Positions 15,161-62,609 of a DNA stretch of 62,651 nt are shown piece by piece. Position numbers and translations under genes: made by a program. The DNA is from Bacillota bacterium (GTDB lineage: Bacteria; Bacillota; Dethiobacteria; DTU022): the NCBI GenBank assembly GCA_012840855.1, contig DUVX01000150.1, positions 1 through 62,651 on the forward strand, in the 5' to 3' direction. The stretch's first letter is position 1; every line of letters begins with the position of its first letter. Under the pieces are notes generated by a model that worked only from the letters and a program-made list of their open reading frames with translations, ran no database searches and was not told the DNA's origin.

Positions 15161-15236
15161 GCCGGCATAGCTCAATTGGTAGAGCAGCTGAATCGTAATC
15201 AGCATGTTGGGGGTTCGAGTCCTCTTGCCGGCTCCA
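15161..15236 (+). tRNA. tRNA-Thr (anticodon CGU)
   Basis: Folded by hand into a cloverleaf: acceptor GCCGGCA/TGCCGGC, D arm GCTC..GAGC, anticodon stem GCTGA/TCAGC with loop ATCGTAA, T loop TTCGAGT, encoded CCA. Confidence 0.9.
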
Positions 15237-19454: not shown

Positions 19455-19564
19455 CTCTTATCTGGAGTGGAGGAGGGACGGCCCCGATGAATCCCGGCAA
19501 CCGGATTCCCTGTTGAATTGCGGTGCCAATTGCCGCGGAAGAAGGCTCTTCCGGAAGATGAGAG
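19455..19564 (+). promoter_or_regulatory. SAM-I (S-box) riboswitch
   Basis: CTCTTATC..GGAGGGAC.GGCCCCGATGAATCCCGGCAACC...GGTGCCAATTGCC...GATGAGAG. The conserved S-box core is present and a P1 helix closes it. It lies upstream of metK. Confidence 0.9.
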
Positions 19565-54347: not shown

Positions 54348-54899
54348 ATGAAGCGCGAAGAAGCGTTAAGTTTGGTCAAGGAAGAGGTAAAAAATAAAAA
54401 CCTGCTCAAGCATATGCTGGCCGTTGAAGCGGTGATGCGCCGCCTCGCCGGGGAACTGGGCGAGGACGAGGAGCTCTGGGCTCTTGCCGGGCTCCTGCAT
54501 GATCTCGATTACGATAAGACGGTCGATAATCCCGAGCAGCATGGCCTTCTGGGAGCGCAGATCCTGGAAGAAAGGGGTTTGCCGGAAGCGCTGATCCAGG
54601 CGGTGAAGGCCCACAATCCCGCTCTCGGTGTGGAGAGGCGGACACCGATGGATAAGGCCCTTTACGCCGCCGATCCCGTTACCGGGCTTTTGGTAGCGGC
54701 GGCTCTGGTGCATCCGCAGAAGAAATTGGCTGCCATCGATCTGGAATTTGTGATGAAGCGATTTAAAGAAAAAAGTTTTGCCCGCGGCGCTGACCGGGGG
54801 CAGATCGAGACTTGCCGCGAGTTGAATCTCTCCCTCGAGCAGTTTTTAGCTCTGAGCCTGGAGGCGATGCAGTCCATTGCGGCAGATCTGGGGCTGTAA
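54348..54899 (+). CDS. HD/HDIG-domain phosphohydrolase
   Basis: ...HMLAVEAVMR..., LLHDLDY. ATG 54348 lies after GGAGGAG. Confidence 0.8.
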   Translation: MKREEALSLVKEEVKNKNLLKHMLAVEAVMRRLAGELGEDEELWALAGLLHDLDYDKTVDNPEQHGLLGAQILEERGLPEALIQAVKAHNPALGVERRTPMDKALYAADPVTGLLVAAALVHPQKKLAAIDLEFVMKRFKEKSFARGADRGQIETCRELNLSLEQFLALSLEAMQSIAADLGL

Positions 54900-54907
54900 A
54901 AACAACG

Positions 54908-57064
54908 ATGAGATCTAGAAAAAAGAAACCCAATTCGATACCCGGGCTGCAGGACAGAATCGTGCAGGTACTGTCGGCCCATCGCCGGCGTTCCCTGGCT
55001 CTGCCGCAGCTGCTGAGATCCCTGGGCTTGCGGAAAGAGGAAAGAAATGTGCTTTCAGAGCAGCTGCAACTAATGCAGTCCGCAGGGCTGCTGGTCAAAA
55101 CAGGGCAGGGGCGCTATGGCCTGCCCCGCCGGCTGAAGTGCGTCACCGGAGTTCTTGAGGGAAACCGCAAGGGGTACGCTTTTCTCAGGCCCGATCTTGA
55201 ACAAAACGGGGATGTATTTATCGGCCCGCGCAGCCTCAATGGCGCGGTTCATGGCGACCGTGTTCTGGTGCGCCTGCTCTCACCGGGCGGCCGTCCCAAC
55301 CGCGAGGGTGAAGTAATAAGTGTCCTGGGGCGGGGCTGCCGGCAGCTCATCGGGACCCTAGAGCAGCGGGGTAAAAGATATTTTGTCGTACCCGACGACA
55401 GCCGTCTCGGCCGGACGGTGGAGCTCTCGCGCGGCTTGAAGAAGGCCCGTCCGGGAGAGAAGGTGGTTGTGCGGATAGATTCCTGGCAGAAGGGGAAGCG
55501 CCCTACCTGCGGCCACCTTATCGAGCGGATCGGGAAGGCGGGCACGGCGCAGACAGAGCGGCTCCTTTTTGACCGGCAGCATGAACTGCCCGACAAATTT
55601 CCACCGGCCGCGCTTCGTGAACTGGGCACGCTCCCACCTGCGGAGGCGATCGGCAAGATCGCCGCTGCTGAAAAACGGGCCGATCTGCGTAGCTTGCCAG
55701 CAGTCACTATCGACGGGGCCGGGGCAAAAGATTTTGATGATGCTGTTTCATTGGAAACTTTACCGAAGGGCGGCTACCGGCTGGGGGTGCATATCGCCGA
55801 TGTTTCACATTATGTTTCCGAAGGGAGAGCGATCGACCGGGAAGCGCTGAAAAGAGGAACCAGCACCTATCTGGTGGAGCGGGCTGTGCATATGCTGCCG
55901 CCCCTGCTTTCGGAGGATCTTTGCAGCCTCAGAGCTGGCGAAGATCGCCTCGCCTTGAGCGCGCTCATCGATCTCTCCGCCGCTGGGGAGGTGCAGCGCT
56001 ACCGCTTCTGTTCCTCCCTGGTAAGGGTAGCCCGGCGCCTGACCTATCCGCAGGTGGAGGCTTACCTCACGAAGAGGAGCACACCAGGAAGCGATCGTTC
56101 ATTTCCCGGTGGAATGCTTGATCTGATGGACAGGCTGGCCACGCTGCTGCGGCAAAAGCGTATGCAGCGCGGCACCCTTGATCTCGATATCCCCGAGCCG
56201 CAGTTTATCCTCGATGAACAGGGCAATGTCATCGCCATAGAGCGACGCCGTCAGGGGCGCTCCGAATCGCTCATCGAGGAGTTCATGATCCTGACCAACG
56301 AGGTTGTCGCCGCTTATCTGACCGGCAAGGATCTGCCGTTGATCTACCGGATCCATGCCCAGCCCGCTGAAGAGAAGCTGGCGGCTCTGCGGGAGACGCT
56401 GCTCCTTCTAGGAGATGAAACCGCCGCCGCAGTGCGCCGCTTCAAACCGCATCATCTCAAGACCCTCCTGGAAAGATCCCGCGGCGAGGTCACAGAATCC
56501 CTGGTCCGTCAGCTGGTGCTGCGCTCCTTGCCACAGGCCCGCTACAGCATCGTCAACGAGGGCCACTTCGGGCTGGCTTCGCCCTGTTACTGCCATTTCA
56601 CCGCTCCCATCCGGCGCTATCCCGACCTGGTGGTGCACCGGATCCTGAAAGAGTCGCTACAGCCTGGAGGGCTTGGGAAAAAAAGGTTGGCCCAGCTACA
56701 GGCGCAGTTGCCGGCGACAGCAGATCATGTTTCGGAAAGAGAGCGGGCGGCGATGGAAGCGGAGCGGGCCAGTGAAGATCTTAAAAAGGCGGAGTATATG
56801 GAAAGTAAGGTAGGAGAGGTCTTCCCCGGGGTAATCAACGGCGTCACCGATTTCGGCCTCTTTGTGGAGCTGGAGAATACAGTTGAGGGGATGATTCCCC
56901 TGAGCGAGCTCACCGACGACTACTATATCTACCGGGAACGCTCAGCGGCGGTAGTGGGCGAGCGCACCCGTAAAACTTACCGGCTGGGCGATCCGATCCG
57001 GATCAGGGTAATCCGCGTAGACAGCGCCGCCGGGAAGATCACTTTCGGTCTGAAGGAAGATTGA
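54908..57064 (+). CDS. rnr: ribonuclease R
   Basis: RNB core (...AKDFDDAVS..., ...HFGLASPCYCHFTAPIRRYPD...) and a C-terminal S1 domain (GVINGVTDFGLFVEL). The track start at 54812 overlaps the HD gene; ATG 54908 follows its stop. Confidence 0.92.
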   Translation: MRSRKKKPNSIPGLQDRIVQVLSAHRRRSLALPQLLRSLGLRKEERNVLSEQLQLMQSAGLLVKTGQGRYGLPRRLKCVTGVLEGNRKGYAFLRPDLEQNGDVFIGPRSLNGAVHGDRVLVRLLSPGGRPNREGEVISVLGRGCRQLIGTLEQRGKRYFVVPDDSRLGRTVELSRGLKKARPGEKVVVRIDSWQKGKRPTCGHLIERIGKAGTAQTERLLFDRQHELPDKFPPAALRELGTLPPAEAIGKIAAAEKRADLRSLPAVTIDGAGAKDFDDAVSLETLPKGGYRLGVHIADVSHYVSEGRAIDREALKRGTSTYLVERAVHMLPPLLSEDLCSLRAGEDRLALSALIDLSAAGEVQRYRFCSSLVRVARRLTYPQVEAYLTKRSTPGSDRSFPGGMLDLMDRLATLLRQKRMQRGTLDLDIPEPQFILDEQGNVIAIERRRQGRSESLIEEFMILTNEVVAAYLTGKDLPLIYRIHAQPAEEKLAALRETLLLLGDETAAAVRRFKPHHLKTLLERSRGEVTESLVRQLVLRSLPQARYSIVNEGHFGLASPCYCHFTAPIRRYPDLVVHRILKESLQPGGLGKKRLAQLQAQLPATADHVSERERAAMEAERASEDLKKAEYMESKVGEVFPGVINGVTDFGLFVELENTVEGMIPLSELTDDYYIYRERSAAVVGERTRKTYRLGDPIRIRVIRVDSAAGKITFGLKED

Positions 57065-57721: not shown

Positions 57722-60478
57722 CTAGGATGATTCTTCTCCCCTGTTCACGCGCCGCTCATAGAGCCGGTTTGTGATCGCTTTACATATCTCACCAAGCAAG
57801 AGTGGGGTCATCGAAAGGGCAGCGACGTAAAGCCAACCCTCTCTACCGAGCGGGACTGCGTGGAAGATGGCAGCGGCGGGTGGAACCAAAAGGATGGCCA
57901 GCTGCAGCGCGCCGGAGATAAAGACGGCTCCCAGCAGCGGCCGGTTGCCGAAAAGCTGGGGGCCGATCACAGAGCGATGCAGCGAGCGAAAGTTGAAAAC
58001 ATGGACCAGCTGGCATAAAGCGAGGGTGGCGAAGGCCATGGTCCGCCCTTTTTCGACGGATTCGCCGGCGCCAATAGAGAAGGCGGTTAGGGTGATCAGG
58101 CCGATAATGAGGCCGAAAAGGACGATGGTGCCTAGAGAGCGGCGGCTGAAAAGGCCGCTTCCGGGGCTGCGCGGTGGCCGGTGCATTGTATTGCTTTCCT
58201 GTGGATCGACCCCCAGGGCGAGCGCCGGCAGACTGTCGGTGATCAGGTTGATCCAGAGAATCTGCAGCGGCAGCAGCGGCAGCGGCCAACCCAAAAGGAT
58301 CGCAGCGAGGACGGTAAAGATCTCGCCAGCGTTGCAGGAGAGCAAGAAAACTACCGCTTTCTTGATATTTTCATAGATAACCCGCCCCTCTTCGACAGCC
58401 CGTACGATGGTGGCAAAATTATCATCAGCCAGGACCATCTCGGAAGCTTCTTTGGCTACGGCAGTACCGGCCCGGCCCATGGCGATGCCGATATCGGCCC
58501 GCTTCAGGGCGGGAGCATCATTGACCCCGTCGCCTGTCATCGCTGCGCACTCACCTTTTTCTTTCAGTGCCTGAACGATGCGCACTTTCTGCTCCGGTGC
58601 CACACGGGCAAAAACTTTGAGATCTTTGATCCTCCCCGACAGTTCCTTGTCATTGAGCTGCTCGATCTCCCGTCCGCTGATGAGCTCTGCACTATCAGAA
58701 GCCAACCCCAGTTCCCTAGCGATAGCCAACGCCGTCGCCGCATGGTCGCCGGTGATCATCTTCACGGCGATGCCCGCATCGAGGCAGGTTTTGATCGCTG
58801 ACTTGGCTTCTGGACGCGGCGGATCGATCATCCCCATGAAACCGGCAAAGATGAGCCCCTGTTCGTCCTCCTCTGCAGCATGGTTGCTGTCTTCCGGAAG
58901 GGGACGGAAAGCAAAGCCGAGAACTCGCAGAGCGCTGCTCGCCATCTTCTGATGGCGCGAGAGCAGCTCTTCTTTTTTGGAAGCGGTCAGCTCTTGCGGC
59001 CCTGTGGACGTAAGCAGATAGCGGCAGCGCTCCATGATCAGATCGGGAGCTCCCTTTACCAGGAGCCAGCGGCGGTCTCCTTCCAGCTCTGGCCAGGGCA
59101 GATCGAGATCGCCGCGATGGACCGTGCTCATTATCTTGCGTGTTGAATCAAAGGGATGTTCGTCTACCCGCGGCAGTAGCGTCCTGAGTTGCTCGCCGTG
59201 GAGCCCTGCTTTTGCAGCGACGGCGATGAGCGCTCCTTCGGTGGGATCGCCGATCACCCTCAGCCGTCCTTCCTCTTCCGCCAGGCGGCTGTCATTATTC
59301 AAGAGGCCGATCGTGAGAAGAAGGCGCAGGCGCCGATCCTGATGCGGTTTGATATTCCGCTCTTCCTGCAAGAATTCTCCCTGGCCCTTGTAGCCCTCAC
59401 CGGTGACGCTGATTGTACCGCCGCCGTAATCAATCTGCCGTACAGTCATCTCGTTTTGCGTTAATGTTCCCGTCTTATCCGAGCAGATCACCGTGGCAGC
59501 ACCCAGCGTCTCCACCGCCGGCAATTTGCGGATAATGGCCCGCTGCCGGGCCATACGCTGTACCCCCAGGGCCAAAACAATGGTGATAATGGCCGGCAGC
59601 CCTTCGGGGATGGCGGCTACAGCCAGGCTAACCGAGGTAAGAAACATCTGCAAAAGATCATGCCCTCGTAGCACGCCTAGGGCAAAGATAAGGGCGCAGA
59701 GGAAGACAGCGAGCAGCCCCAGCTGGCGGCCGAAGCGGTCGAGATTTTTCTGCAGCGGTGTTTTTTCCAGCGGGGCTGCCTGGATCATCCCGGCAATACG
59801 ACCGATCTCCGTATCCATCCCTATAGCGGTGACCATGGCCCGTCCTCTTCCGCCGGTTATAATTGTCCCCCGGTGAACCATATTGTTACGCTCGGCGGGC
59901 GCCAATGCAGCCGGGGCGGGGTCAGGATTCTTTTCGACAGGAACCGATTCGCCGGTCAGGGCCGATTGATCGACGGTAAGGCAGGCCGCTTCGATCAAGC
60001 GGGCGTCTGCCGGGCTGAAATCACCCGGCTCGAGCAGGATCAGATCGCCCGGTACCAGTTCGCGGGCCGGCATCTCGAAAAAGGCGCCCTCACGGATCAC
60101 CTTCGCTGTGGGTGCGCTCAGGGATTTCAGGGCAAGAAGTGATTTTTCAGCCTTGTATTCCTGGACTACCCCCAGGATAGCATTGAGCAGAACCACGGCC
60201 AGTATAACGACGGCATCGGTTGTCTCACCGATGGCCAGCGATACCGCAGCTGCGGCGATGAGCAAAACAATTAGAAATTCCTTGAACTGCGTCAGAAGCA
60301 GCCCCCAGAGGGTGATCCCTTTCTTTTCCTCCAGTTCATTGGGGCCGTACTGTTTTTGCAACTGCTTCACCTGGACCAGGTTCAGGCCGCTGTTGCGATC
60401 AGAGTTCAGCGCTTCCGCTGTGCGTTCAGCGCTCAGGGTGTGCCATGTATTTTCCAAAGGTTGTCCCCTTCCAGTCAA
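57722..60478 (-). CDS. P-type (type II, 'Ca2+-ATPase-like') cation-transporting ATPase; probably Mn2+/Ca2+ efflux given its leader
   Basis: CSDKTGTLT, PEGLP (TM4), TGDHAATA, MTGDGVNDAPALK. Start is TTG 60478, or TTG 60457 after GGAAGGGGA. Confidence 0.9.
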   Translation of the reverse strand: MTGRGQPLENTWHTLSAERTAEALNSDRNSGLNLVQVKQLQKQYGPNELEEKKGITLWGLLLTQFKEFLIVLLIAAAAVSLAIGETTDAVVILAVVLLNAILGVVQEYKAEKSLLALKSLSAPTAKVIREGAFFEMPARELVPGDLILLEPGDFSPADARLIEAACLTVDQSALTGESVPVEKNPDPAPAALAPAERNNMVHRGTIITGGRGRAMVTAIGMDTEIGRIAGMIQAAPLEKTPLQKNLDRFGRQLGLLAVFLCALIFALGVLRGHDLLQMFLTSVSLAVAAIPEGLPAIITIVLALGVQRMARQRAIIRKLPAVETLGAATVICSDKTGTLTQNEMTVRQIDYGGGTISVTGEGYKGQGEFLQEERNIKPHQDRRLRLLLTIGLLNNDSRLAEEEGRLRVIGDPTEGALIAVAAKAGLHGEQLRTLLPRVDEHPFDSTRKIMSTVHRGDLDLPWPELEGDRRWLLVKGAPDLIMERCRYLLTSTGPQELTASKKEELLSRHQKMASSALRVLGFAFRPLPEDSNHAAEEDEQGLIFAGFMGMIDPPRPEAKSAIKTCLDAGIAVKMITGDHAATALAIARELGLASDSAELISGREIEQLNDKELSGRIKDLKVFARVAPEQKVRIVQALKEKGECAAMTGDGVNDAPALKRADIGIAMGRAGTAVAKEASEMVLADDNFATIVRAVEEGRVIYENIKKAVVFLLSCNAGEIFTVLAAILLGWPLPLLPLQILWINLITDSLPALALGVDPQESNTMHRPPRSPGSGLFSRRSLGTIVLFGLIIGLITLTAFSIGAGESVEKGRTMAFATLALCQLVHVFNFRSLHRSVIGPQLFGNRPLLGAVFISGALQLAILLVPPAAAIFHAVPLGREGWLYVAALSMTPLLLGEICKAITNRLYERRVNRGEESS

Positions 60479-60494
60479 ATTATAACCCCCATGA

Positions 60495-60532
60495 TAAATA
60501 AAAAACCTTTAACATGAACCCATGTTAAAGGT
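60495..60532 (-). terminator. intrinsic terminator forming the riboswitch expression platform
   Basis: On the minus strand, ACCTTTAACATG-ggtt-CATGTTAAAGGT (perfect 12 bp) followed by TTTTTATTTA, ending about 16 nt before the ATPase start. Confidence 0.8.
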
Positions 60533-60624
60533 CTCGCTGCTTGCGGATAGCAAGTGGTGGACCAGGTATTGCTACCGTGATGTTGATCCACCGGACAGGT
60601 AAACCTGCCAGTTACTCCCCTTTG
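60527..60624 (-). promoter_or_regulatory. yybP-ykoY (Mn2+) riboswitch aptamer
   Basis: The minus strand reads CAAAGGGGAGTAAC-[GGCAGGT tt ACCTGTC]-[GGTGGATC...GGTCCACC]-[CTTGC tatcc GCAAG]-CAGCGAGACCTTT. The conserved AAAGGGGAGUA and GAGACCUUU blocks and the four-helix layout match the family as I know it. Confidence 0.8.
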
Positions 60625-60630
60625 GCCCCC

Positions 60631-60659
60631 ATTATAGCTTCCTGCCGCGTTGCAGTCAA
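60631..60659 (-). promoter_or_regulatory. near-consensus sigma-A promoter of the riboswitch-ATPase transcript
   Basis: On the minus strand, TTGACT (60659-60654), a 17-nt spacer, then TATAAT (60636-60631). The predicted TSS is a few nt before the aptamer. Confidence 0.7.
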
Positions 60660-60691
60660 GCAGTTGATAACCTGTTGCACTGGAATGGTAA

Positions 60692-60710
60692 GGGCGAACA
60701 GAGTTCGCCC
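60692..60710 (-). terminator. stem-loop after the yhhN-like gene (weak terminator)
   Basis: GGGCGAAC-tct-GTTCGCCC lies 11 nt after the stop. The tail TTACCATT is only partly U-rich. Confidence 0.4.
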
Positions 60711-60720
60711 GCCATCTGCC

Positions 60721-61401
60721 CTAAAGGTGCGAGCCCAGCCAGGCACCGTAGAGAATTCCCATTTGGGCGGGGATATAGGTCAGCCAGATCCAGAGGTGAG
60801 GCCTGATCATCGCCAGCCCTCCGAAATCGGTGATCCCGATGATCGTGTCGGAGATGAAGAAAAGGAACGCCCCTACTAGGATCATCCACCACCAGCCGGC
60901 CAGCTGCAGGGCGGTGATGAAAGCAAAACAGAGCATCGTTCCCAGCAGTAAAGAATAGATCAGAGCCCCCAAATTCAAAGCCGATTTCTTTTCCGGGTTG
61001 CGTATAAAAAACCACCAACTTATAATTATGGCCAGCCAAAAGGCGGCGAGAATCAAGCCTGCATATAGCGATAGACCTGTCTCTAGCAAGGTATAAAAGG
61101 CGGCGATGTAAAGGATTTGGGCCGGTGCGAAAGCGAGCATCCCGCCGATACGGGGATTTTTAAGCGGAATCACTCCCGCATTAAACAGATCACCTATAAA
61201 AGAAAAGATCATTCCGAGGAGCAGCAGGTTGCCGGTTATGTTGCGCAGCGACAGAGAGATGAGCAATGCAGTTAAAACCAGAGATAAGCTGAGAATAATT
61301 CTGATTATAAGAGGAAGGCGGATTTTTTTAGGATCATCAGAGACTATCTGGCGGCCCTGATTAAGGCCCCACCCCAGTAACAAGAGTTGTCCTAAAGCCA
61401 A
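60721..61401 (-). CDS. YhhN-like (TMEM86/lysoplasmalogenase-family) polytopic membrane protein; true start possibly ATC 61422
   Basis: About 7 TM segments. ...FSFIGDLF... and ...FFISDTIIG... resemble YhhN family motifs (tentative). The AAGGAGG SD lies 29 nt from TTG 61401 but 8 nt from in-frame ATC 61422. Confidence 0.65.
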   Translation of the reverse strand: MALGQLLLLGWGLNQGRQIVSDDPKKIRLPLIIRIILSLSLVLTALLISLSLRNITGNLLLLGMIFSFIGDLFNAGVIPLKNPRIGGMLAFAPAQILYIAAFYTLLETGLSLYAGLILAAFWLAIIISWWFFIRNPEKKSALNLGALIYSLLLGTMLCFAFITALQLAGWWWMILVGAFLFFISDTIIGITDFGGLAMIRPHLWIWLTYIPAQMGILYGAWLGSHL

Positions 61402-62258: not shown

Positions 62259-62609
62259 GGGGGCGTAAGGATTCGACGGGGGTTATGGAGACAGGAGCGG
62301 CAGGTTCGGGACCATGGCCCGGTAAAAACATGGAACGGCTATAAACGCCAACGATAATCTAGCCTACGCTGCTTAAATAAGCAGCGCGTCCCTTCCCTTC
62401 CTGACCGGGGGTGGGAGTAGGGGCGTCGACAAACCGGCCTACCGCTGCAAGCGGTCGCTCCACCGCTGCAGGGGGAAATACAACGGAGACGGCAGCACAG
62501 GATCCCGCTCCGGGGAGCCGGTGCTGCGAGAACAAATCCGGAGCTAAGCCTGTAGAAGCCTCTGTAAACTAGCCTTCGGACGCGGGTTCGATTCCCGCCG
62601 CCTCCACCA
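62259..62609 (+). ncRNA. ssrA: tmRNA (SsrA), tag ORF 62347-62376 encoding ANDNLAYAA
   Basis: 5' GGGGGCGTAAGGATTCGACGGGG. 3' tRNA-like end GGACGCGGGTTCGATTCCCGCCGCCTCCACCA. Resume codon GCC follows ...CTATAAAC. The stop TAA sits in the hairpin GCTGCTTA-aa-TAAGCAGC. It lies directly downstream of smpB. Confidence 0.9.

Follow-up and report, generated by a model that had tools for sequence, protein, structure and literature searches.

The leader of a type IIA P-type ATPase gene in the 62.6-kb window (the whole stretch of Bacillota DNA that was analysed, 62,651 nucleotides) contains a near-consensus promoter, an aptamer of the yybP-ykoY (Mn2+ riboswitch) family and an intrinsic terminator that shares a strand with the closing helix of the aptamer. 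The helices covary, closure of the aptamer and formation of the terminator are mutually exclusive, and the whole unit is conserved in relatives. We read the leader as a transcriptional ON switch for the ATPase, with a probability of about 0.8. By analogy with published systems, Mn2+ would be the ligand, its binding would allow read-through, and the pump would have Mn2+ as its substrate.

Promoter, aptamer and terminator

The features of the locus are listed below in the order in which they are transcribed.

60631..60659 (-), sigma-70-type promoter: -35 TTGACT at 60659-60654, 17-nt spacer, -10 TATAAT at 60636-60631
60527..60623 (-), yybP-ykoY (Mn2+) riboswitch aptamer with a four-way junction, from covariance model R1, helix drawing and covariation
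60623-60619/60531-60527 (-), helix P1.1, 5 bp
60612..60618 (-), loop L1, 5' side, GGAGUAA in AAAGGGGAGUAAC, read directly from the sequence
60611-60609/60539-60537 (-), helix P1.2, CUG/CAG
60608-60604/60599-60595 (-), helix P2, GGCAGG/CCUGUC
60592-60585/60563-60556 (-), helix P3.1, GGUGGAUC/GGUCCACC
60577..60586 (-), loop L3, UCAACAUCAC, bearing a C-A dinucleotide, read directly from the sequence
60576-60573/60568-60565 (-), helix P3.2, GGUA/UACC with a GCAA loop
60554-60550/60544-60540 (-), helix P4, CUUGC/GCAAG, 5 bp
60532..60536 (-), loop L1, 3' side, CGAGA including the invariant AGA, read directly from the sequence
60495..60532 (-), intrinsic terminator: 12-bp stem 60532-60521/60516-60505, GGUU loop, U tract 60504-60495
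60455..60472 (-), ribosome-binding site GGAAGGGG (60472-60465) and likely TTG start codon (60457-60455) of the ATPase gene, read directly from the sequence
57722..60457 (-), type IIA P-type ATPase, the regulated gene, 911 aa: TGES at 168, PEGLP at 284, DKTGT at 327, GDGVNDAP at 642

The promoter that an earlier note on this DNA had proposed (TTGACT, 17 nt, TATAAT) was found on the minus strand at 60659-60631 and agrees with the consensus at 11 of 12 bases. Transcription is predicted to start at ∼60624-60623, about 7 nt past TATAAT, which is the 5' edge of the aptamer. The arrangement TTGACC/T-17-TATAAT is unchanged in position in all seven close relatives. The spacer upstream of the ATPase gene, previously given as 240 nt, measures ∼242 nt up to the start in the list of open reading frames (60478) and ∼263 nt up to the TTG at 60457. 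The TTG is the likelier start because it is preceded by the ribosome-binding site GGAAGGGG and gives the 911-residue length of the NCBI-annotated cluster member (90% cluster). A further site resembling a promoter (TTGACT-18-GAAAAT, 60478-60449) was rejected as a chance match; it agrees with the consensus at only 9 of 12 bases and overlaps the start codon.

Both sequence blocks by which the aptamer had been recognized are present on the minus strand, AAAGGGGAGUA from 60623 and GAGACCUUU from 60535. All six helices of the four-helix junction, comprising a P1.1/P1.2-P2 leg and a P3.1/P3.2-P4 leg, can be drawn in the window, and these include P1.2 and P3.2, which the earlier note had not described. 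The three hairpins that it had described are all present and correspond to P2, P3.1 and P4. However, the seventh pair claimed for P2 is unrealistic; it would leave a 2-nt loop, and P2 therefore realistically has 5-6 bp. When the nascent aptamer was folded alone, the minimum-free-energy structure included P1.1, P2, P3 and P4.

The order and register of the family-defining blocks are canonical and match those of the E. coli mntP leader: GGGGAGUA lies in L1 at 60620-60613, UCAACAU in L3 at 60586-60580, and the AGA on the 3' side. UCAACAU is the canonical consensus over all 7 nt, and the AGA of L1 is invariant in the family (PMC6649816). As summarized in the same source, the C/A pair of L3 coordinates metal in the L. 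lactis and S. pneumoniae RNAs, with N7 of A41 binding Mn2+ in L. lactis (PMC6649816); judged by position, the L3 C-A of the window would match this metal-coordinating pair. The base after GGGGAGUA is A where G is usual (GGGGAGUAA, not ...UAG), resulting in an A.C mismatch on top of P1.2. The 62.6-kb window contains a single copy of the composite core GGGGAGTA..TCAACA..AGACC, and none of 100 dinucleotide shuffles contains it.

This last result bears on whether the region contains a functional RNA or instead encodes a 112-residue protein on the plus strand (60541..60879), with the riboswitch motifs arising by chance. That reading frame does exist in the mechanical list of open reading frames, as the earlier note had pointed out while calling it spurious. 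However, it has no Pfam match, it overlaps the 3' end of the YhhN gene in antisense orientation as well as the conserved RNA, and in most relatives the antisense open stretches that cross the aptamer are short and in varying frames, with a maximum of 58 codons in L202 (84% identity). Given also that the chance expectation of the composite core motif is zero, the probability of the coding reading is negligible.

The terminator consists of a perfect 12-bp stem (ACCUUUAACAUG/CAUGUUAAAGGU) followed by UUUUUAUUUA, and the hairpin has a predicted energy of -15.2 kcal/mol. As had been claimed from the sequence, the stem shares the 3' strand of the closing helix. Specifically, the stem begins with six bases, ACCUUU, that overlap P1.1 on its 3' side, and for this reason P1.1 and the terminator cannot form at the same time. 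Folding of both conformers gave -41.9 kcal/mol for the terminator form and -30.2 kcal/mol for the aptamer with P1.1 closed, energetics that are compatible with a switch that would be OFF by default.

Family membership and conservation in relatives

The window element scores 15.7 bits with the Rfam model RF00080, against a gathering threshold of 45 (E 0.028 in a 451-nt search). The earlier note had held that the lack of a significant RF00080 match would speak against the riboswitch, and on that standard the score nominally does so. The standard is, however, invalid with the copy of the model used here. Under the same copy, the mntP riboswitch of E. coli, which has been validated by experiment, scores 41.6 bits and thus also falls below gathering, and in this copy P1 is unpaired and the model ends before the 3' GAGACC block, without the 3' strand of P1. 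For these reasons the RF00080 cut-off does not discriminate in this case. Since both the window element and the validated mntP element miss gathering with this copy, riboswitches of this kind can escape annotation. Other weak Rfam matches, to mir-722 and mir-451 on the terminator hairpin and to DUF1874 and AaHKsRNA22 on the plus strand, were dismissed as chance, being far below gathering with E > 1.

The training set of an independent covariance model, R1, comprised 110 canonical yybP-ykoY sequences picked by a pattern that the window fails to match. Among 103 downstream reading frames of the training set that were scanned, 86 match Pfam families of the Mn/cation-exporter type (GDT1, 43; MntP, 27; Na_Ca_ex, 10; TauE, 5; P-type ATPase, 1), and a match to the CDF family 'Cation_efflux' was also recorded for one training member. 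Because loop lengths vary, RNAalifold did not recover P4 from the MAFFT alignment, and this helix was specified by hand. R1 matches 60628..60522 of the minus strand over its full length (1-114) with a score of 52.1 bits and an E-value of 4e-13 to 1e-12, which is rough owing to a shortened calibration. The best background match in the window with filters off reaches 8.3 bits, and the proposed membership of the yybP-ykoY family is upheld by this difference. In 122 kb searched with R1 up to E = 10 there was no match outside the expected upstream position, and in the other ∼580 kb of related loci (E ≤ 1) all matches lie upstream of an ATPase gene or a yjbQ-ATPase pair.

The promoter, the aptamer and the terminator overlapping P1.1 together precede the orthologous ATPase gene in 18 of 19 relatives (54-84% identity), that is, in 7/7 close genomes and in 11/12 sampled homologues at 54-84% identity. 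The eight closest leaders are 98% paired yet contain just two compensatory events. Covariation was uninformative in this set, which was therefore widened via protein homologues. In the resulting set of 21 homologues linked to an ATPase gene, pairing extends to 89.4% of cells, as against 25-46% in slid controls, and compensatory change is seen in 20 of 28 pairs, as against 5-8 in the controls; the observed pairing and compensation values were reached in 0 of 500 shuffles. P2 is badly registered in the model-based alignment (53%), yet its hairpin is visible in every sequence. The L1 element GGGGAGUA is kept in 20 of the 21 members, the exception being AGGGAGUA in L076, and CAACA of L3 is likewise kept in 20. 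In 20 of the 21 leaders the 3' strand of P1.1 doubles as the 5' arm of a terminator, and the distal stems vary freely. The A.C mismatch on top of P1.2 occurs in 11 of the 21, all within a close clade, and is replaced by a canonical G-C pair in the more distant members.

These data also address whether the aptamer could be a decayed relic that no longer binds metal, so that the leader would only attenuate or terminate transcription constitutively or act as a leaky barrier behind yhhN, the gene upstream. The Rfam score below gathering and the mismatch on top of P1.2 would fit such decay. Against this, the element scores 52 bits with the independent family model and owns its near-consensus promoter, and across relatives whose ATPases are just 54-84% identical L1 and L3 are strictly conserved and the helices change in a compensatory manner, indicating purifying selection on the fold. 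Loss of function is accordingly a highly improbable account of the leader.

Proposed switch and ligand

In the ON switch that we favour, transcription would begin directly at the aptamer, the four-way junction would fold, and the L1 and L3 loops would form the metal pocket. At low Mn2+, the short P1.1 would be displaced and ACCUUU would join the 12-bp terminator and its U tract, so that transcription would stop before the pump gene. Rising cytoplasmic Mn2+ would instead stabilize P1.1 through metal-mediated docking of L1 and L3. P1.1 stabilized in this way would withhold the 5' arm of the terminator, and RNA polymerase would read through into the ATPase gene, the product of which may then export surplus Mn2+ and possibly also Ca2+. 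The ON-switch wiring put forward in the earlier note holds as a reading.

The arrangement of promoter, aptamer, terminator and pump gene is already known, having been published for YoaB, MgtA and CD2503. Control of a P-type ATPase gene by a Mn2+ riboswitch through antitermination is established in Lactococcus and Streptococcus and has been predicted in C. difficile. In S. pneumoniae mgtA (SN44) an aptamer of the Mn2+ family lies in the 5' untranslated region of the gene for MgtA, a PII-type ATPase formerly called a Ca2+ pump (PMC6649816). There too, aptamer closure and an intrinsic terminator compete, and Mn2+ activates read-through (PMC6649816); by analogy the switch in the window would also be turned ON by metal. 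The two RNAs share GGGGAGUA and AGA in L1 and the C-A pocket in L3. The mgtA aptamer differs in being a three-way junction with UNAAA in place of P4, whereas the junction in the window is a complete four-way one that includes a P4 of 5 bp, and the A.C mismatch on top of P1.2 belongs to the window alone of the two.

According to summaries of the L. lactis yoaB system, the crystallized yybP-ykoY aptamer is a four-way junction and a transcriptional ON switch of a P-type ATPase gene, as proposed here, and YoaB protects against Mn2+ toxicity (PMC6649816, PMC8632737, PMC11477304). C. difficile CD2503, also from the Bacillota, is similar by its description as a cation-translocating P-type ATPase preceded by a predicted Mn2+ riboswitch (PMC11477304). 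E. coli mntP has the blocks GGGGAGUAGC .. GUCAACAUAC .. GCGAGACC in the same order as the window and the same helices. However, it controls an exporter of the MntP family and is without a terminator of the window's kind, and its riboswitch is described as mechanistically unlike the Gram-positive members (PMC8632737).

It is conceivable that the main signal is not Mn2+ but another transition metal (Co2+, Cd2+, Ni2+ or Fe2+) or alkaline pH. An A.C pair can be sensitive to protonation, and the mismatch on top of P1.2 might be taken in favour of a pH signal. In vitro, yybP-ykoY aptamers are not strictly specific for Mn2+ (PMC6649816, PMC11477304), and alkaline pH raises the transcripts of the E. 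coli and B. subtilis members (PMC8632737). Nevertheless, a physiological Mn2+ response is found in every characterized member (PMC6649816, PMC8632737), and the pocket nucleotides of the window are unchanged. A signal of this other type is therefore very unlikely.

The regulated ATPase

The PEGLP, DKTGT and GDGVNDAP motifs from which the pump had been recognized were verified, and the protein has the Pfam domains Cation_ATPase_N, E1-E2_ATPase, Cation_ATPase, Hydrolase and Cation_ATPase_C. The earlier note expected homology to yield the name Ca2+-ATPase. This is the case in IMG ('Ca2+-transporting ATPase') but not in NCBI, where the same cluster is called 'cation-translocating P-type ATPase'. 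The protein reaches the cut-off of none of three NCBIfam equivalog models, scoring 722.1 with TIGR01522 (PMR1-type; cut-off 798.3), 665.7 with TIGR01116 (SERCA-type; 703.4) and 500.6 with TIGR01517 (PMCA-type; 507.05). It is thus not fileable as a defined Ca2+-ATPase subtype, and the sole model passed is the generic P-type ATPase model TIGR01494.

The ion site has Asn and Glu in M5, Asn, Thr and Asp in M6, and Gln in M8 at the position of SERCA E908. The SERCA ligands E309 (M4), N768 and E771 (M5), and N796, T799 and D800 (M6) are conserved, and E908 alone differs. The nearest solved structures are those of Listeria monocytogenes LMCA1 (PDB 6ZHF; 687 bits) and of human SPCA1, a Ca2+/Mn2+ pump (601 bits). 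LMCA1 shares with the window pump a Ser after the M6 Asp (DSLPA) but has Ala at the position of SERCA E771 and Arg at that of E908, where the window pump has Glu and Gln. No report of a riboswitch preceding LMCA1 was found in the riboswitch literature cited here. Because the ion-site residues are SERCA/LMCA1-like and the nearest solved relative is a Ca2+ pump, Mn2+ transport is not demonstrable from sequence alone. A signature separating Mn2+ from Ca2+ at the ion site was sought, also in a MAFFT alignment of 82 ATPases, and none proved decisive. The window pump has Leu at the position of SPCA Q747, for which Ala has been suggested in MgtA. The TDS/VFN signature follows phylogeny.

These properties of the pump are relevant to the possibility that in this lineage the yybP-ykoY fold senses Ca2+, or Ca2+ and Mn2+ equally, and switches on a true Ca2+ efflux pump. 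The similarity to LMCA1, the top NCBIfam matches to Ca2+-ATPase equivalogs and the IMG name are in keeping with this, and the clade-specific A.C mismatch adjoining L1 could change selectivity. Furthermore, 0.5 mM Ca2+ compacts the S. pneumoniae mgtA aptamer in vitro, and some read-through is seen with Ca2+ (PMC6649816). In that published case, however, Mn2+ is by far the better activator in vitro, and there is no response to Ca2+ in vivo even at 10 mM (PMC6649816). Every metal-pocket nucleotide is canonical in the window, and the mismatch gives way to a regular G-C pair in the more distant members linked to the ATPase. We consider this possibility to be unlikely.

Returning to the Mn2+ switch, the wiring of the gene to a manganese sensor suggests that the physiological role of the pump is probably Mn2+ detoxification, a likely correction of function for a protein called a Ca2+ or generic cation ATPase. 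The same role is probable for many relatives in uncultured anaerobic Bacillota, some of which have been named "SERCA-type". Speculatively, the whole ATPase clade might be dedicated to exporting Mn2+ and not to pumping Ca2+, and the A.C mismatch fixed in the Dethiobacteria/Syntrophomonadaceae sub-clade could retune the switch in its threshold or pH dependence, although we regard this extension as doubtful. The clade (53-100% identity) is marked by TD(S/T)LPA in M6, by ...VFN in M8 and by Gln at the position of SERCA E908, and it is under near-universal control by the Mn riboswitch. A sister clade in Desulfosporosinus and Desulfitobacterium has TDGLPA/...VFD and is without the riboswitch. The public names of proteins within the pump clade are 'Ca2+-transporting' or 'SERCA-type'.

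Organization of the ATPase leader

The yhhN-family gene and the P-type ATPase gene flank a putative regulatory unit, the elements of which are listed here in the order of transcription.

Features of the ATPase locus
60721-61401, minus strand: yhhN-family gene (Pfam YhhN), 3' end at 60721
60659-60631, minus strand: near-consensus promoter TTGACT-17-TATAAT (11/12 matches)
From 60623, minus strand: aptamer 5' block AAAGGGGAGUAAC, beginning only ~7 nt beyond the -10 box
Between the 5' and 3' blocks, minus strand: hairpin P2 (GCAGG/CCUGU)
Between the 5' and 3' blocks, minus strand: hairpin P3.1 (GGUGGAUC/GGUCCACC)
Between the 5' and 3' blocks, minus strand: hairpin P3.2 (GGUA/UACC, GCAA loop)
Between the 5' and 3' blocks, minus strand: hairpin P4 (CUUGC/GCAAG)
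After P4, minus strand: aptamer 3' block CAGCGAGACCUUU
60532-60505, minus strand: terminator hairpin ACCUUUAACAUG-GGUU-CAUGUUAAAGGU, a perfect 12 bp, then UUUUUAUUUA
57722-60457, minus strand: P-type ATPase gene (911 aa), the next gene downstream of yhhN

The most probable start codon of the ATPase is the TTG at 60457, which lies six bases 3' of the ribosome-binding site GGAAGGGG; the resulting length of 911 residues is exactly that annotated by NCBI for another protein in the same 90% cluster. Every item in an earlier note's description of the sequence (promoter, blocks, hairpins, and terminator) was found at the locus. All of the hairpins it named are present, but it missed helices P1.2 (CUG/CAG) and P3.2. 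The window contains a single copy of the composite core GGGGAGTA..TCAACA..AGACC, which was absent from all 100 shuffles.

An ORF at 60541-60879 on the plus strand, present in the mechanical ORF list, is antisense to the 3' end of yhhN and crosses the conserved RNA. It has no match in Pfam, and no conserved counterpart was found, antisense open stretches through the aptamer being short and variable in frame in most relatives, including the closest. The ORF is very probably spurious, as had been proposed from the sequence.

Directly 3' of the yhhN stop is an 8-bp GC-rich hairpin (GGGCGAAC-UCU-GUUCGCCC, 60691-60709, minus strand) with no clear U tract, which may be the end of the yhhN transcript, insulating the riboswitch unit. 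An A/T-rich motif 3' of the terminator and 5' of the ribosome-binding site (60479-60490, minus strand; GGTTATAATTTGA) resembles a -10 box and has no matching -35 element. It is partly conserved at the same position in four related loci (L001, where it reads GGTTAAAATTTGA, L002, L005, and L006).

Assignment to the yybP-ykoY family

At gathering thresholds, an Rfam scan of the window detected only tmRNA, a SAM-I (S-box) riboswitch (19455-19564, plus strand, 78.7 bits versus a gathering score of 44.4), and a tRNA (15161-15233, plus strand). In a permissive local scan RF00080, the Rfam family for the yybP-ykoY riboswitch, matched 60632-60539 with 15.7 bits, compared with a gathering score of 45. 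The earlier note had taken the lack of a significant RF00080 match as grounds for rejection; the match is indeed below threshold, but this is not decisive. The validated riboswitch in the E. coli K-12 mntP leader, used as a positive control, scored 41.6 bits, also below 45, and its match stopped before GCGAGACC (locus L081, 2462-2558). That leader has three blocks identical in kind and order to those of the window element. RF00080 in the Rfam 15 copy used has 177 positions, with an unpaired P1 5' strand and a long insertion in P4, and ends before the 3' GAGACC block. Given the control score and a model lacking P1 pairing and the 3' block, the RF00080 criterion in this copy is unable to refute membership. 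Riboswitches such as the one in the window can escape this copy, and Mn riboswitches may be under-called by it.

An independent covariance model, R1 (114 positions, 28 pairs), was built from metagenome contigs scanned for the canonical-consensus pattern GGGGAGTAG..TCAACATA..GAGACC. The window itself fails this pattern because it carries GGGGAGTAA and TCAACATC. The scan yielded 120 loci of very diverse origin with 110 distinct sequences, and in their alignment (A1) a four-way junction was supported by covariation, 16 of the 22 pairs found by RNAalifold showing compensatory changes. A hand-specified full structure was 86% paired on A1 versus 29-44% with partners slid, and its covariation score of 0.564 (at most 0.185 in controls) was reached by no shuffle. 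The genes 3' of the training riboswitches encode GDT1/UPF0016 (43), MntP (27), Na_Ca_ex (10), TauE (5), CDF (1), and P-type ATPase (1) proteins, showing that the training set is functionally coherent. E. coli mntP scored 97.3 bits against R1, a value to be expected given that the training set includes E. coli-like sequences. The window matched over the full model length at 60628-60522 (minus strand) with 52.1 bits (E ~1e-12); R1 E-values are rough owing to a shortened calibration, whereas the 44-bit gap to the next-best position in the 62.6-kb window (8.3 bits with all filters off) is independent of them. Apart from the Rfam gathering score, the element shows all of the defining features of yybP-ykoY riboswitches that could be tested.

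Riboswitches at related ATPase loci

A genome scan with the ATPase gave 80 loci, the closest of which (66-77% identity) belong to uncultured Syntrophomonadaceae and Bacillota MAGs; the NCBI label for a member of the ATPase cluster is Dethiobacteria, a class of Bacillota. The arrangement of TTGACC/T-17-TATAAT, aptamer, and ACCUUU-sharing terminator is present in all seven close relatives with upstream sequence. Many closer homologues (53-84% identity) were recovered at the protein level, and R1 matched upstream on the coding strand with 33-47 bits in 11 of 12 sampled contigs. R1 had no match at ~65 homologues with 43-52% identity, mostly from Desulfosporosinus and Desulfitobacterium. A Thomasclavelia-type locus (L076) matched with 27.7 bits. 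A similar leader at L075 (~1850-1960; AAAAGGGAGUAAUU...CGAGACUUUU, then a terminator) falls below the R1 reporting threshold and is probably a divergent member.

Across 21 ATPase-linked riboswitches, 89.4% of positions specified as paired could pair versus 25-46% in slid controls, and compensatory changes occurred in 20 of 28 pairs versus 5-8, a result reached in 0 of 500 shuffles. This alignment was fitted to the model and so is biased toward the structure, a concern reduced by the independent A1 result and by the slid controls, which used the same alignment. The eight closest leaders keep the helices (98% aptamer, 97% terminator), with too little variation to inform. The window departs from the canonical consensus at the top of P1.2, where an A.C mismatch (60612 and 60536, minus strand) adjoins the L1 metal-pocket loop. 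The mismatch is fixed in the close clade of the window (11 of the 21), whereas the 10 more distant members have the canonical G-C.

In two more distant relatives, L211 (390-495) and L212 (306-412), the riboswitch lies 5' of yjbQ (UPF0047), which directly abuts the ATPase gene and by its position appears to be co-regulated with it. A yjbQ-ATPase pair at L207 has no riboswitch match within 1 kb upstream. In the window, the ATPase locus lies between an RNase R gene (54812-57064, plus strand) and a tmRNA gene (62259-62609, plus strand, 182.8 bits). tmRNA or SmpB adjoins the orthologous ATPase in five relatives (L002, L004, L008, L203, and L213) and RNase R does so in L202, so the neighborhood is syntenic.

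Proposed switch mechanism and the ion transported

The 3' strand of P1.1 (CCUUU, 60531-60527) sits within the terminator 5' arm (60532-60521), so the two pairings, as read from the sequence, are mutually exclusive. By nearest-neighbor energies the terminator conformer comes to -41.9 kcal/mol and the P1.1-closed aptamer to -30.2 kcal/mol; for a transcript truncated at the P1.1 3' strand, the minimum-free-energy fold contained P1.1, P2, P3, and P4. Such a combination typifies a default-OFF switch that operates under kinetic control. Stabilization of P1.1 by ligand would block the terminator and allow polymerase to read through. The terminator design is conserved, as 20 of the 21 ATPase-linked leaders have a hairpin of -11 to -23 kcal/mol from (A)GACCUUU to the U tract, with freely varying distal stem and loop. 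The exception, L182 (12056-12156, minus strand), is a canonical-pattern riboswitch 5' of a P-type ATPase of 859 aa; a terminator is lacking there, and the P1.1 3' strand CCUUU pairs instead with the ribosome-binding site AAAGGAGG, a translational ON version of the same logic.

A P-type ATPase controlled by a Mn2+ riboswitch through antitermination is a published arrangement in L. lactis and S. pneumoniae, and one has been predicted in C. difficile (PMC6649816, PMC11477304, PMC8632737). The kind of system is thus already known, and the window adds a member. The mgtA riboswitch uses the same mechanism: sub-millimolar Mn2+ drives read-through in vitro, Ca2+ far less so, and only Mn2+ acts in vivo (PMC6649816). 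The window element differs from the three-way junction of pneumococcal mgtA in keeping the P4 helix and hence a four-way junction (PMC6649816). Family membership and the intact pocket nucleotides (L1 GGGGAGUA and AGA, L3 C-A) point to Mn2+ as the ligand. We consider it likely, at roughly four chances in five, that the element works as an ON riboswitch of the Mn2+ family for the pump.

The pump is a type II P-type ATPase by Pfam and catalytic motifs. Its best NCBIfam matches were Ca2+-ATPase equivalogs (PMR1-type 722 bits, SERCA-type 666, PMCA-type 501), none of which reached its curated cut-off; the generic P-type model was the only one to pass. The expectation that homology would name it a Ca2+-ATPase held for the IMG cluster name ('Ca2+-transporting ATPase') but not for that of NCBI ('cation-translocating P-type ATPase'). 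Among solved structures, the closest to the pump are Listeria LMCA1 (687 bits), human SPCA1 (601 bits), which is a Ca2+/Mn2+ pump, and SERCA2 (566 bits). M5 retains N and E (SERCA N768/E771), the latter being replaced by Ala in LMCA1; M6 retains N, T, and D; and the M8 E908 position is Gln, compared with Arg in LMCA1. The pump sequence does not settle Ca2+ versus Mn2+, and the wiring and the precedents of YoaB, MgtA, and CD2503, all P-type ATPases linked to known or predicted Mn2+ riboswitches (PMC6649816, PMC11477304, PMC8632737), argue for Mn2+ export.

Among L001-L080 and the homologues P0016-P0134, riboswitch-linked ATPases have TD(S/T/A)LPA in M6 and ...FN in M8, and TDGLPA and ...VFD occur in the riboswitch-free clade (the ~65 homologues mostly from Desulfosporosinus and Desulfitobacterium). 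This signature may be a selectivity marker or reflect phylogeny alone; it follows the phylogeny, and we treat it as a lead and no more. In uncultured anaerobic Bacillota, the linkage allows better functional annotation of a broad clade of pumps labeled 'Ca2+/SERCA-type'. The ATPase of one of the 11 R1-positive contigs (P0072 at L210) is named by NCBI 'calcium-translocating P-type ATPase, SERCA-type'.
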